From Enterococcus phage nattely: a stretch of DNA of 64,000 nt. Within the stretch, counting starts at the first letter, position 1; every line of letters begins with the position of its first letter. The stretch lies in sequence record MT119360.1; one strand, written 5' to 3'. Made by a program: the position numbers and the translations under genes. Shown piece after piece: positions 10,763 to 57,957 of this stretch. Under the pieces are notes generated by a model. The model saw only the letters and a program-made list of their open reading frames with translations, did no database searches and had not been told where the DNA came from.

Positions 10763-11821
10763 ATGGAAATTTTATTATTGAATGTCGCAAATAACATTAC
10801 GGATTTTCGAACAGTATCAAGTGGGGAAACAGTTTATCTAAAACAAATGTTAGAACAGTTAGGCCATGGAGTTACAATTGCTTCAAATAAGAATGGTGAA
10901 TATGCGGTTGCATTTGAGGAAATTGAGGATATTAACAATTTTGACAAAGTAGTTGTTTTACCTGCTTCACTGAACTTTTTCGGTGGTGTAGAAAACCCGA
11001 CAATTATTAAAAATTATAAATTATTAGCAAAATATAATGGAACTATTAATATTTTGCAAACTGACGCACGTTTGCCATTTAAGCAGTTGTGGCCAGCAAT
11101 TGAGAAGCGGGGATGGGGATATAAAAAAGAAGAAGTTTGGATTAATGCCCCAATTAAAGTAATTGCACAATCAAAAAATTTAGATGAAGTTAAAACACAA
11201 TATGAAAAAGAAATTTTCAATAACATTGAGTTTACACATTTTCCAATTGAGCGTTATGCTGGCATTGTGGCGCTAATGAATCCAATTGATGAAGTCGAAG
11301 AAAAAGAACATGATTTAGTTTATTATGGTTCATTCCGTGGAGGCAATCGTGCTGCTAAAATGGCAGAATTTTTATGTGGAAACATTGTAGAAAAATTAGA
11401 TGTCCACGTATTTGGAACAATTCGAGAAAAACAATTAGCTAAAAGTAGCGATGGTCCATTTCCTTCGTTTGGTAAAAAGATGAAAATGAATGAAATTAGA
11501 CAAGAGGTTAGCAAAAGTTTCTCAACTTTAATTATTGGTGAAAAATTTTATAATAATGCAATGTTGACAGTGAGGGTTTGGGAAACATTAAGTAGCGACG
11601 CAGTAGTTCTCATTGACAACGATTTTGACTCTTACCATAATTTATTTCCTAATTCGCCATGGCGGTATGTTGAAAAAGAAGAAGATCTTATCGAAGTAGT
11701 AAAATCTCTTAAAGATGATGAAAATAAGAGAAAATTAGCGATTCAAGAGCAAAAAGAAGTGTTAGAAAAAATGATTGATTCTTCTCAATGGTTAAGAGAT
11801 TTTGAAAATATTTTAGCTTAA
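10763..11821 (+). CDS. bgt: DNA beta-glucosyltransferase (T4 BGT homolog, GT-B fold)
   Basis: full-length collinear similarity to T4 beta-glucosyltransferase: MEILLLNVANNITDFRTVSSGETVYL vs MKIAIINMGNNVINFKTVPSSETIYL, NFFGG, TDARLPFKQLWP vs TDIRLPFSQSWP, YGSFRGGNRAAKMAEFL vs YGGSFRSGQRESKMVEFL, LRVWETLSSDAVVLIDNDFD vs LRVWETMASDAVMLIDEEFD; 352 aa vs 351 aa. Confidence 0.85.
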   Translation: MEILLLNVANNITDFRTVSSGETVYLKQMLEQLGHGVTIASNKNGEYAVAFEEIEDINNFDKVVVLPASLNFFGGVENPTIIKNYKLLAKYNGTINILQTDARLPFKQLWPAIEKRGWGYKKEEVWINAPIKVIAQSKNLDEVKTQYEKEIFNNIEFTHFPIERYAGIVALMNPIDEVEEKEHDLVYYGSFRGGNRAAKMAEFLCGNIVEKLDVHVFGTIREKQLAKSSDGPFPSFGKKMKMNEIRQEVSKSFSTLIIGEKFYNNAMLTVRVWETLSSDAVVLIDNDFDSYHNLFPNSPWRYVEKEEDLIEVVKSLKDDENKRKLAIQEQKEVLEKMIDSSQWLRDFENILA

Positions 11822-32733: not shown

Positions 32734-32922
32734 ATGGTTCAAGTAGCAAAAGTAGCATATACTGGTGAAGAACAAGATTTACCATTAGATGTAACGGAGA
32801 AAAATTTATTCGCCGGCGCTGTAACAAAATCAACAGTTAAAGAAGCTATTGATGAAGCAGCAGCTTTGGATAAAAAAGAATTACACCCAACGACAACAAC
32901 TACGACGACAGTTGGTGGTTAA
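32734..32922 (+). CDS. small protein ending in poly-Thr-VGG (same tail motif as the tail tube and capsid extension)
   Basis: ...KKELHPTTTTTTTVGG stop; GGAGAG RBS before ATG 32734 (track starts at TTG 32719); followed by the terminator ggaccgaagtcc plus T-run at about 32930. Confidence 0.55.
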   Translation: MVQVAKVAYTGEEQDLPLDVTEKNLFAGAVTKSTVKEAIDEAAALDKKELHPTTTTTTTVGG

Positions 32923-51362: not shown

Positions 51363-51614
51363 TTAAAAGAAACTTACTTTATCGATTGGTACTAAACCAA
51401 CTGCTTCGGCTTTTCCTTTAGCCAATTTTTTCTTACGTCTTTTAGCTGCTTTTTCGTCTTGCATTGCAACATGAACTTCAGCTAGGTCATTTATTTTCTC
51501 CATAGAGCTATCCCAGAATTCTTCTTCTGTTAACCCGATAACTTTTCGTCCTATATAATATAATTGAGACCAATCAAAAGTTACGGGCTCAGCTGGGTGT
51601 ATTTGTCTTTCCAT
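51363..51614 (-). CDS. tail assembly chaperone, T-like downstream ORF
   Basis: overlaps the upstream chaperone ORF in the +1 frame, directly upstream of TMP. Confidence 0.5.
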   Translation of the reverse strand: MERQIHPAEPVTFDWSQLYYIGRKVIGLTEEEFWDSSMEKINDLAEVHVAMQDEKAAKRRKKKLAKGKAEAVGLVPIDKVSFF

Positions 51615-51921
51615 CAGCTCCTAACAAATCTGTTAGTGCCTCTGATAAGCGTTCTAAATCGTCAATGCCGATAATATCTCCAACTTGTTCAGTTGTGAAA
51701 TTTTTTCCAGGGTTACCAGCATTTAGTGCTGCAGTTGCAATCGCGATCATAGATTCAATTTGTCCGTCTTGAATTTCTTCTAATGCTTTATTAATATCTC
51801 CATATTGTTTTTCTAAAAAATATAATGCGTTTAAGTTAAATTTTAATGTTAAAGTTTGGTCGATTCCTGAAAGATAAATTGATTTTCCTTCATTTTTTAA
51901 ATTGTGTGCTGAGACTACCAT
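51589..51921 (-). CDS. tail assembly chaperone (gpG-like)
   Basis: 110-aa acidic protein between tail tube and TMP. Confidence 0.55.
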   Translation of the reverse strand: MVVSAHNLKNEGKSIYLSGIDQTLTLKFNLNALYFLEKQYGDINKALEEIQDGQIESMIAIATAALNAGNPGKNFTTEQVGDIIGIDDLERLSEALTDLLGADGKTNTPS

Positions 51922-51999: not shown

Positions 52000-52035
52000 A
52001 AAAAAAATTAAGGAGAATCGAAAAAGATTCTCCTT
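52000..52035 (-). terminator. rho-independent terminator after the tail tube gene
   Basis: minus strand aaggagaatctttttcgattctcctt hairpin followed by a T8 run. Confidence 0.6.
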
Positions 52036-52043
52036 AAAATTAA

Positions 52044-52685
52044 TTAACCACCAATTGTAGTGGTAGTTGTTGTCGTAGTTGCTTTAGTGGTTGTTGTAGT
52101 TGTCACAGGATCAGTTGTAGTTGCTCCGTAAACTTTCTCGAACCATGCTTTAATAACTTCTTTATCAGCACCTGGTGCATCCTCGTTAACTGAAGCTCTC
52201 CAATCACCATTGAACACAGTTGGTAAAAATGTACCAGTGATAGTTGTAGTTTGGAATGTGATAGAATCTTCCTTAGTTTGGTAAGAATCTTCACCAACAC
52301 CAAATGAACCTTTGTATAATACTACATATTTGTAAGTTCCATTTGATTTTAAAGAACGAAACGCTAATGCAACACGTGGCGCAACTTTGTTTACGTTATC
52401 ATGAACAACGCCTTTTTCGTCAATTTCGATACCCATTAAACGAGCAACGATTTCGTCCTTAATGTCTGCTGTTTCTAATTCAACTTCAATTGAGCTAATT
52501 GTTTGATTAGAAATTAAAGCAATATCGTCCGCATAGAATGCGTCATCAGATGTTGACGGTGAAATTGAAGCACTAACAGCAGGAGCGATCTTAAACGGTG
52601 CTCCATATGCTAAATTCCCTTTTTCGTCATTTTTTAATTCGAATGCATATAAGTCACTCAAACCAATACGTACTGTATCTTCCAT
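52044..52685 (-). CDS. major tail (tube) protein with C-terminal poly-Thr tail ending in IGG
   Basis: 213 aa in the tail-tube position; C-terminus ...GATTTDPVTTTTTTKATTTTTTTTIGG stop. Confidence 0.65.
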   Translation of the reverse strand: MEDTVRIGLSDLYAFELKNDEKGNLAYGAPFKIAPAVSASISPSTSDDAFYADDIALISNQTISSIEVELETADIKDEIVARLMGIEIDEKGVVHDNVNKVAPRVALAFRSLKSNGTYKYVVLYKGSFGVGEDSYQTKEDSITFQTTTITGTFLPTVFNGDWRASVNEDAPGADKEVIKAWFEKVYGATTTDPVTTTTTTKATTTTTTTTIGG

Positions 52686-52710
52686 GTTTGTAACCTGCCT
52701 TTATAATATT

Positions 52711-53088
52711 TTACTCGTGAAACGAGTTGAAGTAATAATTTTTATTGTAATATAAAACTCTATGATAATCATATGGTTGCTGAGTTTCAGCGTATTCTTC
52801 ACCATTTCGATAATCAAAATTGTTTTCTTCTAGAACTTTCCTGATTGTGTGTTCCGCGCTTGTAAATGATGCGCCATTTCTAGCGATAATATCGATTTTT
52901 AATCGATAAGTGACTTGAGCTATCTTGTTCTCAGCCCGTCCAGAAACGTCGTCTTGATAAGGTAGATAAACTGCATAAACAGGCTCATCACCATCCCCAA
53001 TATAATATCCTTTACCTGTGGGAAATGGCAAATCTTTAAAAATATTATGCAATTCTTTATGAATACTGAATTCTGTAGTTTTGTCCAT
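52711..53088 (-). CDS. head-tail connector / tail completion protein
   Basis: position and size (125 aa) in the connector cluster. Confidence 0.4.
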   Translation of the reverse strand: MDKTTEFSIHKELHNIFKDLPFPTGKGYYIGDGDEPVYAVYLPYQDDVSGRAENKIAQVTYRLKIDIIARNGASFTSAEHTIRKVLEENNFDYRNGEEYAETQQPYDYHRVLYYNKNYYFNSFHE

Positions 53089-53091
53089 TTG

Positions 53092-53562
53092 TTATAACCC
53101 CATTGCGGCAAATACTATATCTGAGATAACTTTCGTCGCTTGATCTTGTCCCTTCTCATATGCTGGTTGCATATAAGGTTTTCCAGCGACATAACCAACA
53201 GTTTTGCCTGATTTTGTAACGATAAAGTGACCACCTTCTAAAATGTGACCCCAATAAACTCCATTTCGATATTTACCTCGTCCTAAGTAAGTACCAACTG
53301 AGACATACGGTTGTCCTGTCTCATCCATTTTAACCGGTGAAATATCAATTGCGTCTCTTAAGTGTTTACTGCTATTTCGATTTGAGTATGGCACTCCTGA
53401 AATTGCAAGTTTCTTAAAAACTTTTGCTCCTTCTTTAAGTGCCTTTTTCGCAGATTTTTCACCTTTGTCTCCCATTGTCATTAATTCTTTAAATAATTCT
53501 TCGAAACCTTCAGCTTTTACATAGAAATTTCCATTAGCCATTTTGATCACCTGTAGAAGCAA
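53092..53562 (-). CDS. head-tail connector protein (HK97 gp10-like)
   Basis: position and size (156 aa). Confidence 0.4.
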   Translation of the reverse strand: MLLQVIKMANGNFYVKAEGFEELFKELMTMGDKGEKSAKKALKEGAKVFKKLAISGVPYSNRNSSKHLRDAIDISPVKMDETGQPYVSVGTYLGRGKYRNGVYWGHILEGGHFIVTKSGKTVGYVAGKPYMQPAYEKGQDQATKVISDIVFAAMGL

Positions 53563-53914
53563 TATTTCCTCTACTGTTCTCAGTTGATGCAGTTAAAATA
53601 AGATATTCATTTCTAAAGTTTGGATTAAAAATTCCATTGATTTGATATTCTTTTTTATTATAACGGACCAACATAGCTTTCGTAATTCCTTCACGATAAT
53701 AAATTTTAAAAGTTACTCGTTCAACTGTTACTGTTTCTTTTCCATCATTAATTTCAACAGGCTCTTCTGAATTTTTAATTTGTGCCCAAGGTTTTGCGAA
53801 AGGTACGAATACTTGTTGTTGAAAACCTTCATCATCAGTTACCCACTTAATATTCCCAAGTTCGATTCTTCGATCTAATAATCCACTTTGTGTCATAAGT
53901 AATAACCTCCGCAA
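53534..53914 (-). CDS. head closure protein
   Basis: position and size (126 aa). Confidence 0.4.
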   Translation of the reverse strand: MRRLLLMTQSGLLDRRIELGNIKWVTDDEGFQQQVFVPFAKPWAQIKNSEEPVEINDGKETVTVERVTFKIYYREGITKAMLVRYNKKEYQINGIFNPNFRNEYLILTASTENSRGNIASTGDQNG

Positions 53915-54330
53915 CCTTGATTATTAAAACCAGAATCTGCTAAAGATACTTGCCAATTACGATGCATATCTAAAATTCCTTCAAAAACATAAGGCAATTC
54001 TTGTTTTGAAATATCTTCAGTCAAAACTCCACGATTTTTATACCAATGTTCAGAAATTGCTAATGTTGCAATCGTAATTTCTGACGGAATATCTCCATCA
54101 ACCCACTCATTGAATTTCCATCCAAGATAGGTTTGTACAAATGATTTTGCAGCAGCTAAAATGGTTCCAATAAACCTGTCGTTTTCCGCATCTTCAAAAT
54201 CGATTCTCATATAATTTTTTAAGTCATCGACTGTTAAATCTTGAGGCGATGTTGTAGCTACCAAAACTTCTAACTCATTTTTTTCACTATTCTCCATTTT
54301 TTTACCACCTCCGCTAATATAAAAATACAA
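53893..54330 (-). CDS. head-tail adaptor (gp6-like)
   Basis: position and size (145 aa). Confidence 0.4.
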   Translation of the reverse strand: MYFYISGGGKKMENSEKNELEVLVATTSPQDLTVDDLKNYMRIDFEDAENDRFIGTILAAAKSFVQTYLGWKFNEWVDGDIPSEITIATLAISEHWYKNRGVLTEDISKQELPYVFEGILDMHRNWQVSLADSGFNNQGCGGYYL

Positions 54331-54453
54331 TTTTATTCAATTATTATATGTTTATATTAGCGGATGAGATGACCAGTCTCATCAGCTAACGTTAATGGAT
54401 ATAAGGAAAAATCTCAGCCACAATAAAGTAAGCCTCGATTGTAAAATTTTGTA

Positions 54454-55341
54454 TTATTTTTTAACTTTTTTAATCGCTTGGACGTACTTATATGAGCAAA
54501 AATCTTTAGAAATATGTGAAAAATCATCAAAAAATGGCGTATTTTTAACATATTTTCCTTTAAAAAATAGCTCTTTTCTGTCCTCAGTGACTCCTGCGTT
54601 ATGAAAAATCTTATATTTTTCCCAATTTTCGATTGGATCTGTTGCCCAATTGAAGATAAAATCATCAGAAGTTAACGGTTTATAGTTAAATAGAACCATA
54701 TTCCAGCACTGAGACCACATTTCAGCGGTCCAAGTTTGTAAATTTGTATCAATTGTTGCAAAATAACGCCAGAGTGTATTAGAATCGTGATAAACTTTTT
54801 CCCAGAACTCTTTTTTTGGCTTATTTACTAAAACTTGTGCTCCTAGGTGCAGTCCTAGGTGTTCGTTCAACTGATCTTCTGATATTCCTATAATGTCTAA
54901 CATTTTATTTGCAATCTGAGGACCATTTTCGCAACCTTTTATATAATCTAAAGAAAGATAACCAGAACAATCTGAACCGATCCATTCATTATCTTTTAAT
55001 TGAGGAATATTTGGTATTTCTCTGAAGATAACGTCAGAATCAATATAAAGAAATTGTTCTTTTTCCATTTCTGGATTCTCTTCTAAAAATTTCCACCATA
55101 AATATGGTCGAATAGAAGGGATATATCCTTTATATTCTCTATTATCTTCATATCGATAAATAGAAATGTGAGGATATTTTTGTTTTAACCTTTCAGAAAT
55201 TGAAGGGTCAAAACTAGCAAATAATACATAAATATCTTTAATATTATGCTCTAATAAATTTGTGATTGCAACTTCTAATTCCCATTCGAAACGAACTATT
55301 TCTGGTTGGGCAAATAATACTTTCATTTTTCTAGTTCTCAC
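54454..55341 (-). CDS. GT-A fold glycosyltransferase (DxD motif) inside the structural module
   Basis: 295 aa; YIDSDVIF DxD motif after an N-terminal Rossmann-like region. Confidence 0.55.
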   Translation of the reverse strand: MRTRKMKVLFAQPEIVRFEWELEVAITNLLEHNIKDIYVLFASFDPSISERLKQKYPHISIYRYEDNREYKGYIPSIRPYLWWKFLEENPEMEKEQFLYIDSDVIFREIPNIPQLKDNEWIGSDCSGYLSLDYIKGCENGPQIANKMLDIIGISEDQLNEHLGLHLGAQVLVNKPKKEFWEKVYHDSNTLWRYFATIDTNLQTWTAEMWSQCWNMVLFNYKPLTSDDFIFNWATDPIENWEKYKIFHNAGVTEDRKELFFKGKYVKNTPFFDDFSHISKDFCSYKYVQAIKKVKK

Positions 55342-55449
55342 CTTTCAATTTCTAATTTTTATATATGTAAATTGAAGATGGACGAATTAGCATCCACCTT
55401 CAATAGTGAAAAATTTATGTTTCATACTCAACCTACCAGGACGCCAACA

Positions 55450-55589
55450 CTACCCGCCGGGGGTGACGGTGGTAGTTGTTGTAGTCGTTGGTTTAACCGT
55501 TGTCGTCGTCGTAGTTGTTGAAGTCGACGTCGTTGTTGTGGTTGTCGGTTTGACAGTAGTTGTCGTTGTTGTAGTAGGCTGAGGTGTTA
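55450..55589 (-). CDS. putative -1 frameshift C-terminal extension of the major capsid protein (poly-Thr ending in PGG)
   Basis: the -1 frame after capsid stop TAA (55587-55589) encodes VTPQPTTTTTTVKPTTTTTTSTSTTTTTTVKPTTTTTTTVTPGG with stop at 55450-55452; that frame has no start codon and opens 9 codons before the capsid stop; slippery A-AAG at the stop. Confidence 0.45.
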
Positions 55590-56789
55590 CTTTGCTGTTG
55601 CCACTACTAAAGCGTTAGGATTGTAAACTTCTCCATCCATGTAAGTGTCTAAGATAGATAATTGTCCACCAGCTAAAGCTTGTGTTGTATCTTGTGTTAC
55701 GTTAATCAAGTTCATACCTTTTTTGATCAACATACCATAACCAGCTTGGAAGTTACCAAATACAATTTTATCTGCATTTTCGCCAGTTAAAACATCAGAT
55801 ACGTGTACTGGGCATCCAAATAGAGAATAGCCAGGTTTACCGTCAACTAATCCACGGAAGATTAAGAATGTTCCGTCACCGTCTTTTAATTGCATAACTT
55901 TGTTGAACATTGGACGGCTCATTACCCACATAGAACCTTCTAAATATCCTGGGTTTAAAGTACCATAAATGTTCAATAAGTCTGGCACGTCGATGGCTTT
56001 AGCGACATCAAGAGTTAAAACATTTTTATCGCCAATAACTGGACGGAATGCTTCGTCTTCGTTTTCGCCATCTTTAGGTCCAACTAAGATTCCACGTTCA
56101 ATTGTTTTAGCAACAGAACGAGCTAAGCGACCTTGAGCATAACTAACAATATCAACACCAGAATCGTTGATCAATTGTTGAGTTAATTGAATTGCTGCAC
56201 CAACACGTTTTTGGTTAAGTGTTACTGCTTTCAATTTAGGTTGTAATTTGTTTGCGTCTACAGTTTCACCGATGAAACCTTCGTCAAAGTTACCGTCTTC
56301 ACGAGCGATTTTCAAATTACCAGTTACAGATGTGAATTTACGAGCTGCTTCGAACACAGGTGAAGTTTCGCCTAATAATTCAACAATTTCATTGTGAATT
56401 TGTGTAGGTACTAAAAATTCTCCTAATGGATTTGCGTTGTTCGCAGTTGTATTTTCACTATTTGAGTAAGTAATGTCACGCAATTCTTCCCCTTCGCGAC
56501 GACGTAAAAATTGTTCCATGCCGCGTAATTCGACTTCTTTTGTAATTTCTTTTTCCATCTTTGTTTCTCCTCCGATTGTTTCGACATCTGCATCAGCTAA
56601 TGAACGAACTTCTTTAATTTGTTTGATAGACGCATCTAAATCTGCGACTTCGCTTTTAATTTCTGAAATACGACTTAATTCACTTTCGTCAAAAGCACGA
56701 GTTTCTGCTTCAACTTTATCAGCAACTTCGCTCATTTCTTGAACTAATGCGTTGCGTTTTTCCAACATTGCTTTTAAATTAATTTCCAT
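55587..56789 (-). CDS. major capsid protein (HK97 fold) with N-terminal coiled-coil delta/scaffold-like domain
   Basis: 400 aa directly after the prohead protease gene; N-terminal coiled coil. Confidence 0.75.
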   Translation of the reverse strand: MEINLKAMLEKRNALVQEMSEVADKVEAETRAFDESELSRISEIKSEVADLDASIKQIKEVRSLADADVETIGGETKMEKEITKEVELRGMEQFLRRREGEELRDITYSNSENTTANNANPLGEFLVPTQIHNEIVELLGETSPVFEAARKFTSVTGNLKIAREDGNFDEGFIGETVDANKLQPKLKAVTLNQKRVGAAIQLTQQLINDSGVDIVSYAQGRLARSVAKTIERGILVGPKDGENEDEAFRPVIGDKNVLTLDVAKAIDVPDLLNIYGTLNPGYLEGSMWVMSRPMFNKVMQLKDGDGTFLIFRGLVDGKPGYSLFGCPVHVSDVLTGENADKIVFGNFQAGYGMLIKKGMNLINVTQDTTQALAGGQLSILDTYMDGEVYNPNALVVATAK

Positions 56790-57957
56790 TCTCTGGAACC
56801 TCCATAATTTTATTATTTTCTAACCAAGCTCTAACTTCTGCTTGTACATCAGGCTTTTTCGTGGTTGTTGTCGTTGTTTCTGGTTCAGCTGCTGTTTCCG
56901 CTTTACCTTCTTCAACTTTCGTTTCGGCAACTGGTGTTTCTTCCGCTTTTTGTTCAGTTTCGTCAACACGAGTTTCTTCACTCGGTTCTTCAACTTTAGC
57001 CTCAGCTTTAGGCTCACCATTTTCGTCCTCAACAACGGCTTTTGTACCGTCTTCAGTTTTTTCAACTTTAGCTTTTTCTTCAGTAACAGGTTCTTCAACC
57101 TTTTCTTCAGTTACTTTTTCTTCAACAGTTGGTGTTGGTTCAGTTGGTTGGGCTGGAGTTGCAGCAGCTGCTGTAGGGTCCATTGGTGGAACTTGTGCAC
57201 TTGCAACTTGTGAAACTTGTTCCATTACCTGTTTCGCCATTTCCAATCCATCAAATGCGGACTTATCTACAATTTCTTGTAATAATTTATTTGTGTCTGC
57301 TTGATTCATTGCTAAAGTTGAAATAGCATCATACAACATTTTTGGTGTTACTTCCATATTGTCTGTATTCAAACCATTTCCTCCTATAAGAGCTCTAAAC
57401 TCCAGATCATTCGGAATTTCAACGTCAGCTACTTCCATACCGCGTGCCTCCAATAAAGTAGTTGGATATGCGGGAGTTTTTAGTGCTGAAACTTCAAATA
57501 GTTCAATTTCACTAATAGTTCGAAGTGGCATTCCGTCTGCAGCTAAAGACCAATCTTCATTTAATACTTTCATACCAAAAGAAAGACCTTTAATAATTCC
57601 ATCTTTTACTAATACATATAAGTCTCGTCCGTAACTTGTTGGAGACACAGTTGCTTCAAAATAAAGACCAACTTCGTCTTCTTCCAATTTTAACGAGCCA
57701 TTTGCAGTAGATGCTAAAATCTTTTTAGTATCATGATCGGCAAGTAAATCGATACTTTCTTTCAAGCGTTTTGCTTTTGCAATTGCATTTCTGAAAGTTC
57801 CTGGAGCAATTACTTCTCTCCATTTTTTCTTACCTTCTTTGCCAAGGATGTGACTTGATGCGTCAGTTGCTACATATCCTTGCAATTTCATTTCTTTCGA
57901 CTCTTCATCAACATCATTGATGTTCAAATCAAGAGCACGAACTTCAATTCCATCCAC
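56779..57957 (-). CDS. prohead protease (HK97 S78-type) fused to E/K/T-rich scaffold-like C-terminus
   Basis: N-terminal protease domain with GYVATDASSH...FGMKVLNEDW...EVSALKTPAYP; C-terminal low-complexity acidic region with a TTTTTT run. Confidence 0.65.
   Translation of the reverse strand: MDGIEVRALDLNINDVDEESKEMKLQGYVATDASSHILGKEGKKKWREVIAPGTFRNAIAKAKRLKESIDLLADHDTKKILASTANGSLKLEEDEVGLYFEATVSPTSYGRDLYVLVKDGIIKGLSFGMKVLNEDWSLAADGMPLRTISEIELFEVSALKTPAYPTTLLEARGMEVADVEIPNDLEFRALIGGNGLNTDNMEVTPKMLYDAISTLAMNQADTNKLLQEIVDKSAFDGLEMAKQVMEQVSQVASAQVPPMDPTAAAATPAQPTEPTPTVEEKVTEEKVEEPVTEEKAKVEKTEDGTKAVVEDENGEPKAEAKVEEPSEETRVDETEQKAEETPVAETKVEEGKAETAAEPETTTTTTKKPDVQAEVRAWLENNKIMEVPENGN

Follow-up and report, generated by a model that had tools for sequence, protein, structure and literature searches.

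Poly-threonine C-terminal tails and a GT-A-type enzyme predict virion O-glycosylation in Enterococcus phage nattely and other phages of Gram-positive bacteria

Why would a phage keep a candidate glycosyltransferase among the genes for its head and tail? The question is raised by the genome of Enterococcus phage nattely (sequence record MT119360.1), of which a stretch of 64,000 nucleotides (nt), the window, was analyzed here. On its minus strand, genes for the portal, prohead protease, major capsid protein, an unknown open reading frame (ORF), four connector or completion proteins, and the tail tube follow one another in the usual order. The unknown ORF, situated between the capsid gene and the Ad1 connector/adaptor gene, encodes a DxD motif (YIDSDVIF), and poly-threonine (poly-Thr) stretches are found both at the end of the tail tube protein and, beyond the capsid stop codon, in the -1 frame. 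A preliminary description of the locus proposed that the ORF is a GT-A glycosyltransferase acting on these capsid and tail tube tails. This core idea is strongly supported by the predicted fold of the protein and by the joint gain and loss of enzyme and tails across phages. As such, O-glycosylation of the virion by a phage enzyme on poly-Thr C-terminal tags is our favored explanation, a computational prediction with strong comparative support to which we assign a probability of roughly 0.7. The 5-kb region concerned is 92-95% identical in DNA to that of the Enterococcus siphophages vB_EfaS_140, VPE25, VFW, vipetofem, and vB_EfKM29 (genus Vipetofemvirus, subfamily Andrewesvirinae) and approximately 73% identical to that of the Denvervirus phages Planchet and 9183.

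The assignment of the ORF as a glycosyltransferase combines structure prediction with conservation. The predicted structure consists of a single Rossmann-like alpha/beta/alpha domain of the nucleotide-sugar-binding kind, without a membrane segment, in which a strand (residues 96-100) leads directly into the DxD motif, as in GT-A enzymes. The best fold matches include LgtC, glycogenin, GlyE, and the catalytic domain of UGGT (GT24), with equally good scores for glycogenin and the UGGT domain, at sequence identities of approximately 10-17% to these GT8-type and UGGT folds. Residues D101, D103, H247, G250, and K261 are invariant among 69 homologues with identities down to 28%. Because the homologues begin at an ATG six codons into the ORF, the start was placed there, and the protein is probably 290 amino acids (aa) long and not the 295 aa given in the preliminary description. 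We accept it as a predicted retaining GT-A glycosyltransferase that is GT8-like by fold. Filing it as a GT8 member was rejected, since the curated Pfam model for that family (Glyco_transf_8, PF01501) does not recognize the protein. When the 69 homologues were scanned against Pfam one by one, this model matched a single member (E 0.0027) and all GT-A family matches were marginal; the full HxxGxxKPW motif of GT8 is likewise not evident in the enzyme, with just H247-x-x-G250 being there. A profile of the 69 homologues compared with PDB sequences returned nothing credible, only spurious TALE-repeat matches.

The full-length PHROG match of the enzyme is a family annotated as of unknown function, and this family is large, with 1,032 clusters at 50% identity (among 1.84 billion representatives) and at least 596 loci in IMG/VR. 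Sampled phages carrying the enzyme, both lytic and temperate, have Enterococcus, Lactobacillus, Lactococcus, Staphylococcus, and Clostridium hosts. Many family members are fusions of 500-790 aa (e.g., P0128, P0133, P0138, and P0140), and their partners are GT2, Glyco_transf_7C (galactosyltransferase type), methyltransferase, and radical-SAM/SPASM (peptide-modifying) domains, which would fit a role in glycan building or peptide modification.

Which proteins of this genome could serve as acceptors? The tail tube protein ends in YGATTTDPVTTTTTTKATTTTTTTTIGG (also given as TTTTTTKATTTTTTTTIGG), and its relatives all have an in-frame tail, variable in length and ending. Past the capsid stop codon, the -1 frame reads K-VTPQPTTTTTTTVKPTTTTTTSTSTTTTTTTVKPTTTTTTTVTPGG. 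The observations of the preliminary description are thus confirmed, and they are extended by a third tail that it had missed, on a 62-aa protein encoded outside the structural module and ending in HPTTTTTTTVGG. This candidate third acceptor has no PHROG or Pfam match. Its gene lies among early/replication genes, directly after a topoisomerase gene, and its tail has the same poly-Thr plus VGG as the tail tube; the homologue in vipetofem (gp097) ends in TTTTTTTAAGV. Close to its C-terminus, the prohead protease/scaffold protein also has an internal run, PETTTTTTKKPD, either a possible fourth acceptor or a mere linker. The protease of Staphylococcus phage SA2, which has the enzyme, contains a similar internal Thr-rich stretch. 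Across the whole window, Thr runs were found on coding strands only.

The distribution of enzyme and tails over other phages carries most of the argument. Among the 80 best IMG/VR enzyme loci of the at least 596, 78 have one to three C-terminal poly-Thr tails, and all 126 tails are on the enzyme strand, with 0 on the other strand. The tails are on ORFs whose sizes match capsid and tail tube, the capsid-sized ORF usually ending just upstream of the enzyme gene. In all annotated enzyme-carrying phages inspected, virion proteins have poly-Thr tails at their extreme C-termini, and the enzyme gene usually comes directly after a tail-bearing gene. In phiFL1A, the capsid protein ends in TTTTTTTQG and the tail tube in TTTTTTTQASSK; in iLp84, both end in TTTTTTTSK and a small protein is also tailed; and in Lactococcus phage 1706, both end in THHD. 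The tails of Lactococcus phage bIL285 end in TRHD, while Clostridium phage phiCTP1 has tails on three proteins, Staphylococcus phage SA2 on its tail tube, and the myovirus Lpa804 on two small ORFs adjoining the enzyme gene.

The strongest case for a link between enzyme and tails is a natural experiment. The capsid cores of the enzyme-free Lactobacillus paracasei phages iLp1308 and CL1 are 98.5% identical to that of the enzyme-bearing phage iLp84. The capsid protein of iLp84 ends in VLVPTTTTTTTSK (VPTTTTTTTSK), whereas those of iLp1308 and CL1 end in VLIPKP, and the tail tube tail of iLp84 is likewise replaced in the two others by an ending in GGSGTGA. Both belong to a set of nine enzyme-free relatives, which also comprises six phages whose phi13-type tail tube is homologous (17-20 kb of each scanned), and no run of at least five Thr was found in any frame in these nine. 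As these relatives are free of such runs and the runs in the window are confined to coding strands, chance cannot explain the Thr tails. The joint gain and loss of enzyme and tails across phages argues for a functional link between the two.

This distribution also bears on the proposal that the enzyme modifies a target outside the virion, for instance wall teichoic acid or polysaccharide of the host (compare prophage TarP and Gtr) or the phage DNA, with the tails being unglycosylated bristles or linkers. Phage glycosyltransferases acting on host surface polymers or DNA are generally well known, and poly-Thr tails do occur apart from this enzyme family. In a further sample, composed of random IMG/VR matches to a DNA pattern of eight ACN (Thr) codons, two unrelated phages (L100 and L195; GC 51% and 44%) have at least three structural-size proteins ending in 8-17 Thr with nothing after them, and the enzyme family is absent from the 13-15 kb stretch examined. 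Tails can thus exist without the enzyme family or use other enzymes; these two phages may have another glycosyltransferase family or another use of the tag, and the poly-Thr tag may be more general than the enzyme family. A non-virion target is nevertheless quite unlikely in our estimate, as enzyme and tails come and go together even between nearly identical capsid cores, the gene lies inside the late structural operon of lytic and temperate phages alike, usually right after a tail-bearing gene, and the predicted structure has no membrane segment. DNA glucosylation in particular was rejected as an unlikely role: it would be served by a separate T4-type DNA beta-glucosyltransferase in the window (Pfam PF09198, 2e-61), and the enzyme family also occurs in ordinary temperate phages. 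The T4-type protein is 98% identical to vipetofem gp059, near which a thymidylate-synthase-like gene is found, and it suggests that the phage DNA may contain glucosylated hydroxymethyl pyrimidines.

One part of the preliminary description, the reading of the terminal x-G-G as a strictly conserved recognition motif, had to be abandoned. A terminal G-G is common to all three tails of this genome and is specific to it: the tails of close relatives end in PGE, AAGK, AAGV, or VGS, those of Denvervirus in AEG or TRQ, and in the wider family the residues past the Thr run are SHA, QA, QG, SK, HHD, RHD, KKV, V, P, or none. Capsid and tail tube endings do agree within a genome in 7 of 27 distinct combinations, against 1.3 expected by random pairing, and shared descent or gene conversion between DNA repeats could be the cause.

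How could a tag that lies in another frame, past a stop codon, become part of the capsid protein? Each of the 10 sequences examined from Vipetofemvirus and Denvervirus has an open, Thr-rich -1 frame past the capsid stop. In the comparison of the window with vipetofem, 18 codons of the extension differ, 16 of them synonymously and 2 non-synonymously when read in the -1 frame, with 0, 2, and 17 nucleotide differences at codon positions 1, 2, and 3. For Planchet and 9183, 13 codon changes are synonymous and 4 non-synonymous, with 2, 1, and 17 nucleotide differences over the three positions. With the slipped codon as its first, the extension is 47, 45, 40, or 32 codons long, as would fit insertions and deletions of whole codons. 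Judged by this substitution pattern, the extension is coding, under purifying selection in the -1 frame, and kept in two genera. Since the -1 ORF begins just eight or so codons upstream of the capsid stop and lacks any ATG, GTG, or TTG, the extension is reachable from the capsid frame alone.

A candidate site for such a frameshift is present in both genera. In Denvervirus, the junction has the canonical heptamer C_CCA_AAA one codon before the capsid stop. The junction of the window reads GCA AAG TAA, in which A_AAG followed by the stop would permit single-tRNA slippage, with the lysine tRNA re-pairing on AAA before the stop codon is read. A -1 shift at CGA_AAG, a site of the same type, reportedly occurs in cdd of Bacillus subtilis. 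Downstream, a predicted long-range RNA helix of approximately 30 nt per arm closes some 130 nt around the whole extension ORF (Table 1), with an energy of approximately -30 kcal/mol in the Vipetofemvirus group (z -3.7 to -4.9; RNAfold, RNAduplex). Denvervirus has a helix of other sequence (GCCAAC/GUUGGC) in the same position, at -17 to -22 kcal/mol, and when the frameshift region was aligned with MAFFT, the arms of the two helices did not fall in register. In the window, the first Thr codons are complementary to the 3' arm, which is rich in G and U. The spacing would suit a frameshift stimulator, and the element itself is plausible but not established. By eye, no convincing Shine-Dalgarno-like stimulator was seen upstream of the slip site.

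It could be objected that the -1 Thr tract is not translated at all but is the decaying remnant of an in-frame tail, or a DNA repeat serving recombination or RNA structure, so that only the tail tube and the small protein would be tagged. The GCA_AAG site of the window is non-canonical, public records give the region as non-coding or as a reverse-strand ORF, and a short tail past an in-frame TAA in bIL285 is possibly a dead remnant. Such a tract would hardly be expected to show the third-position bias and the 16:2 ratio described above, to vary in length by whole codons, or to keep its frame across two genera at approximately 73% DNA identity, with a canonical heptamer in Denvervirus and a helix at stimulator distance. 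We regard an untranslated tract as very improbable.

For the virion, we infer the following mechanism. The 290-aa protein would be a metal-dependent, retaining GT-A (GT8-like) glycosyltransferase that is made late in infection and moves a sugar from a host nucleotide-sugar to the Thr hydroxyls of short, disordered poly-Thr tags at extreme C-termini, with the tail tube protein, the long form of the capsid protein, and the 62-aa protein as candidate acceptors. The tail tube tag, being in frame, would be on every subunit. The capsid tag would be reached by a -1 slip on A_AAG at the last sense codon, aided by the adjacent stop codon and by the helix approximately 6 nt downstream, and depending on the efficiency of this slip it would be on just a fraction of the capsid subunits, comparable to T7 10A/10B. 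The assembled particle would then bear O-linked glycans, presumably exposed at its surface, for which shielding of that surface, colloidal stability, or adhesion are possible roles.

Several observations weigh against virion O-glycosylation as set out here. Two of the 80 enzyme loci (L024 and L094) have no tail by the criteria used, and L100 and L195 present the converse case of tails with the enzyme family absent from the stretch examined. The Pfam scan of the window enzyme gave no match, including to the GT8 model. On the side of the capsid tag, the slip site of the window differs from a canonical heptamer, the helix is supported by two lineages only, and folding of the 80 nt past the capsid stop showed no local hairpin standing out (z -1.5). 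Finally, some of the closest structural relatives, LgtC and GlyE, add a sugar to an existing sugar and not to protein. Because of this, the enzyme could be a second-step transferase that extends or alters a glycan after a host enzyme has primed the poly-Thr tags, in the way that GlyE acts on pneumococcal PsrP. This is an unlikely alternative in our view: the single-enzyme cassette is found across Enterococcus, Lactobacillus, Lactococcus, Staphylococcus, and Clostridium phages, which makes a common host priming enzyme improbable, and glycogenin and the UGGT catalytic domain match the fold equally well.

If virion O-glycosylation by the phage enzyme is accepted, it can further be speculated that poly-Thr tags and a dedicated GT8-like enzyme form a portable "tag-and-glycosylate" cassette, swapped in and out of a C-terminal display slot on capsid and tail proteins, with recoding setting the tagged fraction. 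We give this wider proposal an even chance. A capsid slot of this kind is seen in iLp1308 and CL1 (L226 and L227), where C_CCA_AAA, the heptamer also found in Denvervirus, stands at the capsid end and a Big_2 immunoglobulin (Ig)-like domain follows in the -1 frame (approximately 6355-6634 in L226; Pfam 6e-14); public records list it as a 59-aa 'minor capsid protein' of its own. In iLp84, the same slot holds the poly-Thr protein and the glycosyltransferase. As sister phages fill the slot with either Big_2 or poly-Thr, the capsid C-terminus appears to be a display site for differing modules.

The direction of recoding within such a cassette would probably be -1 in the window phage and +1 in SA2. 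The tail tube gene of SA2 (L010, 6675-6930) ends in TTTTTTTTP at CCC_TAA, and its +1 frame runs on for approximately 70 Thr-rich residues to an acidic tail, with a comparable tail in frame in its relative PT1-1 (L225). This junction resembles the +1 recoding site of Listeria phage PSA, where a +1 shift is said to occur at CCC_UGA, unless it reflects a sequencing error. In bIL285 (L011, 8950-8988), NDKTTTTTTRHD continues the capsid frame past its TAA and ends like the tail tube tail; the stop codon may be read through, or the tail may have been inactivated recently, and the sole other copy (LT985583) is near-identical. A further capsid extension made by recoding may exist in Bacillus phage PfEFR-4 (L217), where LKVDSTTVTTANISWSPVVYDGGIKEYQI, of FN3/Ig-type appearance, is encoded in the +1 frame beyond the capsid stop (after 7365).

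When these results are placed beside known systems, virion glycosylation in mycobacteriophages is the closest parallel. The sugars are reportedly on C-terminal extensions there. According to PMC12363180 and PMC11256854, which summarize the work of Freeman et al. 2023 (Cell Host Microbe 31:1216), glycosyltransferases encoded by mycobacteriophages Che8, Rita, Corndog, and Myrna reportedly modify the capsid and tail tube proteins and give the particle a glycan coat; such virion glycans are reported to shield it from antibody binding and to lower the production of neutralizing antibodies. The likeness, to which the preliminary description had pointed, stands at the level of function: capsid and tail tube carry special C-terminal tails, absent here from relatives without the enzyme, alongside a phage-encoded glycosyltransferase, the arrangement here being read from sequence. 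Kinship of the enzymes was not detected: no mycobacteriophage protein is among the top 50 viral (BFVD) fold matches, a search that did not include a head-to-head comparison with the Che8 and Corndog sequences. The systems also differ in their hosts, Actinobacteria there and low-GC Firmicutes here, and in arrangement, with several enzymes near the 3' end of the genome in the Maravista type (PMC11256854) and one inside the structural operon here. The tag found here is moreover a near-homopolymeric Thr stretch at the extreme C-terminus, acquired by the capsid protein through a proposed frameshift.

Two further comparisons may be made. Programmed frameshifting is said to give a C-terminal capsid extension in T7 gene 10A/10B, and Ig-like domains on phage capsid and tail proteins were reportedly described by Fraser et al. 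2006. As in frameshifted capsid extensions generally, the slip proposed here is at the very end of the capsid gene, would use lysine-codon slippage (NNA_AAG, C_CCA_AAA), and would give a minor, longer form with an extra surface module, whereas the module is a disordered poly-Thr tag and not a folded domain, and the candidate stimulator, a helix around the whole extension ORF, is unusual. The serine-rich repeat adhesins of Gram-positive bacteria, modified by GtfA/B and then by GlyE and related enzymes, resemble the proposed system in that low-complexity Ser/Thr tracts are densely O-glycosylated in Firmicutes, and GlyE is one of the best fold matches. These adhesins are bacterial proteins secreted by a dedicated export system and primed by a GT-B enzyme, none of which is found here.

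The literature is consistent with the view of the preliminary description that such a system is undescribed in phages of low-GC Gram-positive hosts. Searches of full-text literature yielded nothing on poly-Thr tails, on this enzyme family, or on virion glycosylation in Firmicutes phages, although this literature leaves most subscription journals uncovered and a prior description is possible; within it, demonstrated phage virion glycosylation is confined to mycobacteriophages. Ten other phages, including Bacillus phage PBC2, gave no glycoprotein staining (PMC12894461). Our best reading is that of a widespread virion O-glycosylation cassette which did not turn up in the literature searched and would differ from the system of mycobacteriophages in its simpler acceptor tag, its proposed capsid frameshifting, and probably its enzyme family.

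Positions of the features discussed are collected in Table 1. The capsid-to-tube transcription block is closed by a terminator-like hairpin. Between the tail tube and tape measure genes lie two ORFs at the usual place of a frameshift-made pair of tail assembly chaperones.

Table 1. Positions, strands, and properties of the features considered in the 64,000-nt window
Feature	Position	Strand	Properties
Major capsid protein gene	55587..56789	-	400 aa, HK97 type; Pfam Phage_capsid 9.1e-42; PHROG major head protein
Proposed -1 slippery site A_AAG	55590..55593	-	Last sense codon of the capsid gene, then stop TAA (55587-55589)
-1-frame poly-Thr capsid extension	55450..55593	-	46 residues after K400, ends TVTPGG; stop TAG 55450-55452; predicted long form 446 aa
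Long-range RNA helix, 5' arm	55555..55584	-	Starts 2-3 nt past the capsid stop, 6-7 nt from the slip site
Long-range RNA helix, 3' arm	55426..55455	-	Covers the stop codon of the extension
Candidate virion glycosyltransferase	54454..55326	-	290 aa from ATG; ORF from GTG at 55341 is 295 aa; predicted retaining GT-A/GT8-like fold; PHROG 4417
DxD motif	55033..55041	-	D101-S-D103 (295-aa numbering), end of beta strand; within FLYIDSDVIF
Major tail (tube) protein gene	52044..52685	-	213 aa, phi13 type; Pfam Phage_TTP_1; PHROG 88 major tail protein 3.4e-53
In-frame poly-Thr tail of tail tube	~52047-52127	-	Ends IGG
62-aa protein, candidate third acceptor	32734..32922	+	Outside the structural module
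Internal Thr run of prohead protease/scaffold protein	56851..56886	-	Near the C-terminus
T4-type DNA beta-glucosyltransferase	10763-11821	+	
Terminator-like hairpin	52008..52037	-	12-bp stem and T run, directly past the tail tube gene
ORF pair between tail tube and tape measure genes	51363-51921	-	110 aa and 83 aa, overlapping by 26 nt, second at +1 offset

In conclusion, the combination of predicted fold, substitution pattern, and comparison across phages suggests that hundreds of phages of Gram-positive bacteria with this enzyme and these tails may sugar-coat their particles, a prediction directly testable in phages already common in laboratories. If it is true, the Enterococcus therapy and model phages VPE25, VFW, vipetofem, and 9183 would be glycoproteins, as would Staphylococcus 6ec-like phages and many dairy Lactobacillus and Lactococcus phages, with a bearing on immunogenicity, clearance, stability, adhesion to mucus or cell wall, and identification by mass spectrometry. 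It would also provide a function for the large, unknown-annotated family PHROG 4417 and account for stretches annotated as intergenic after capsid genes, and a minimal acceptor tag with one enzyme would be a general handle for the glyco-engineering of phage particles.

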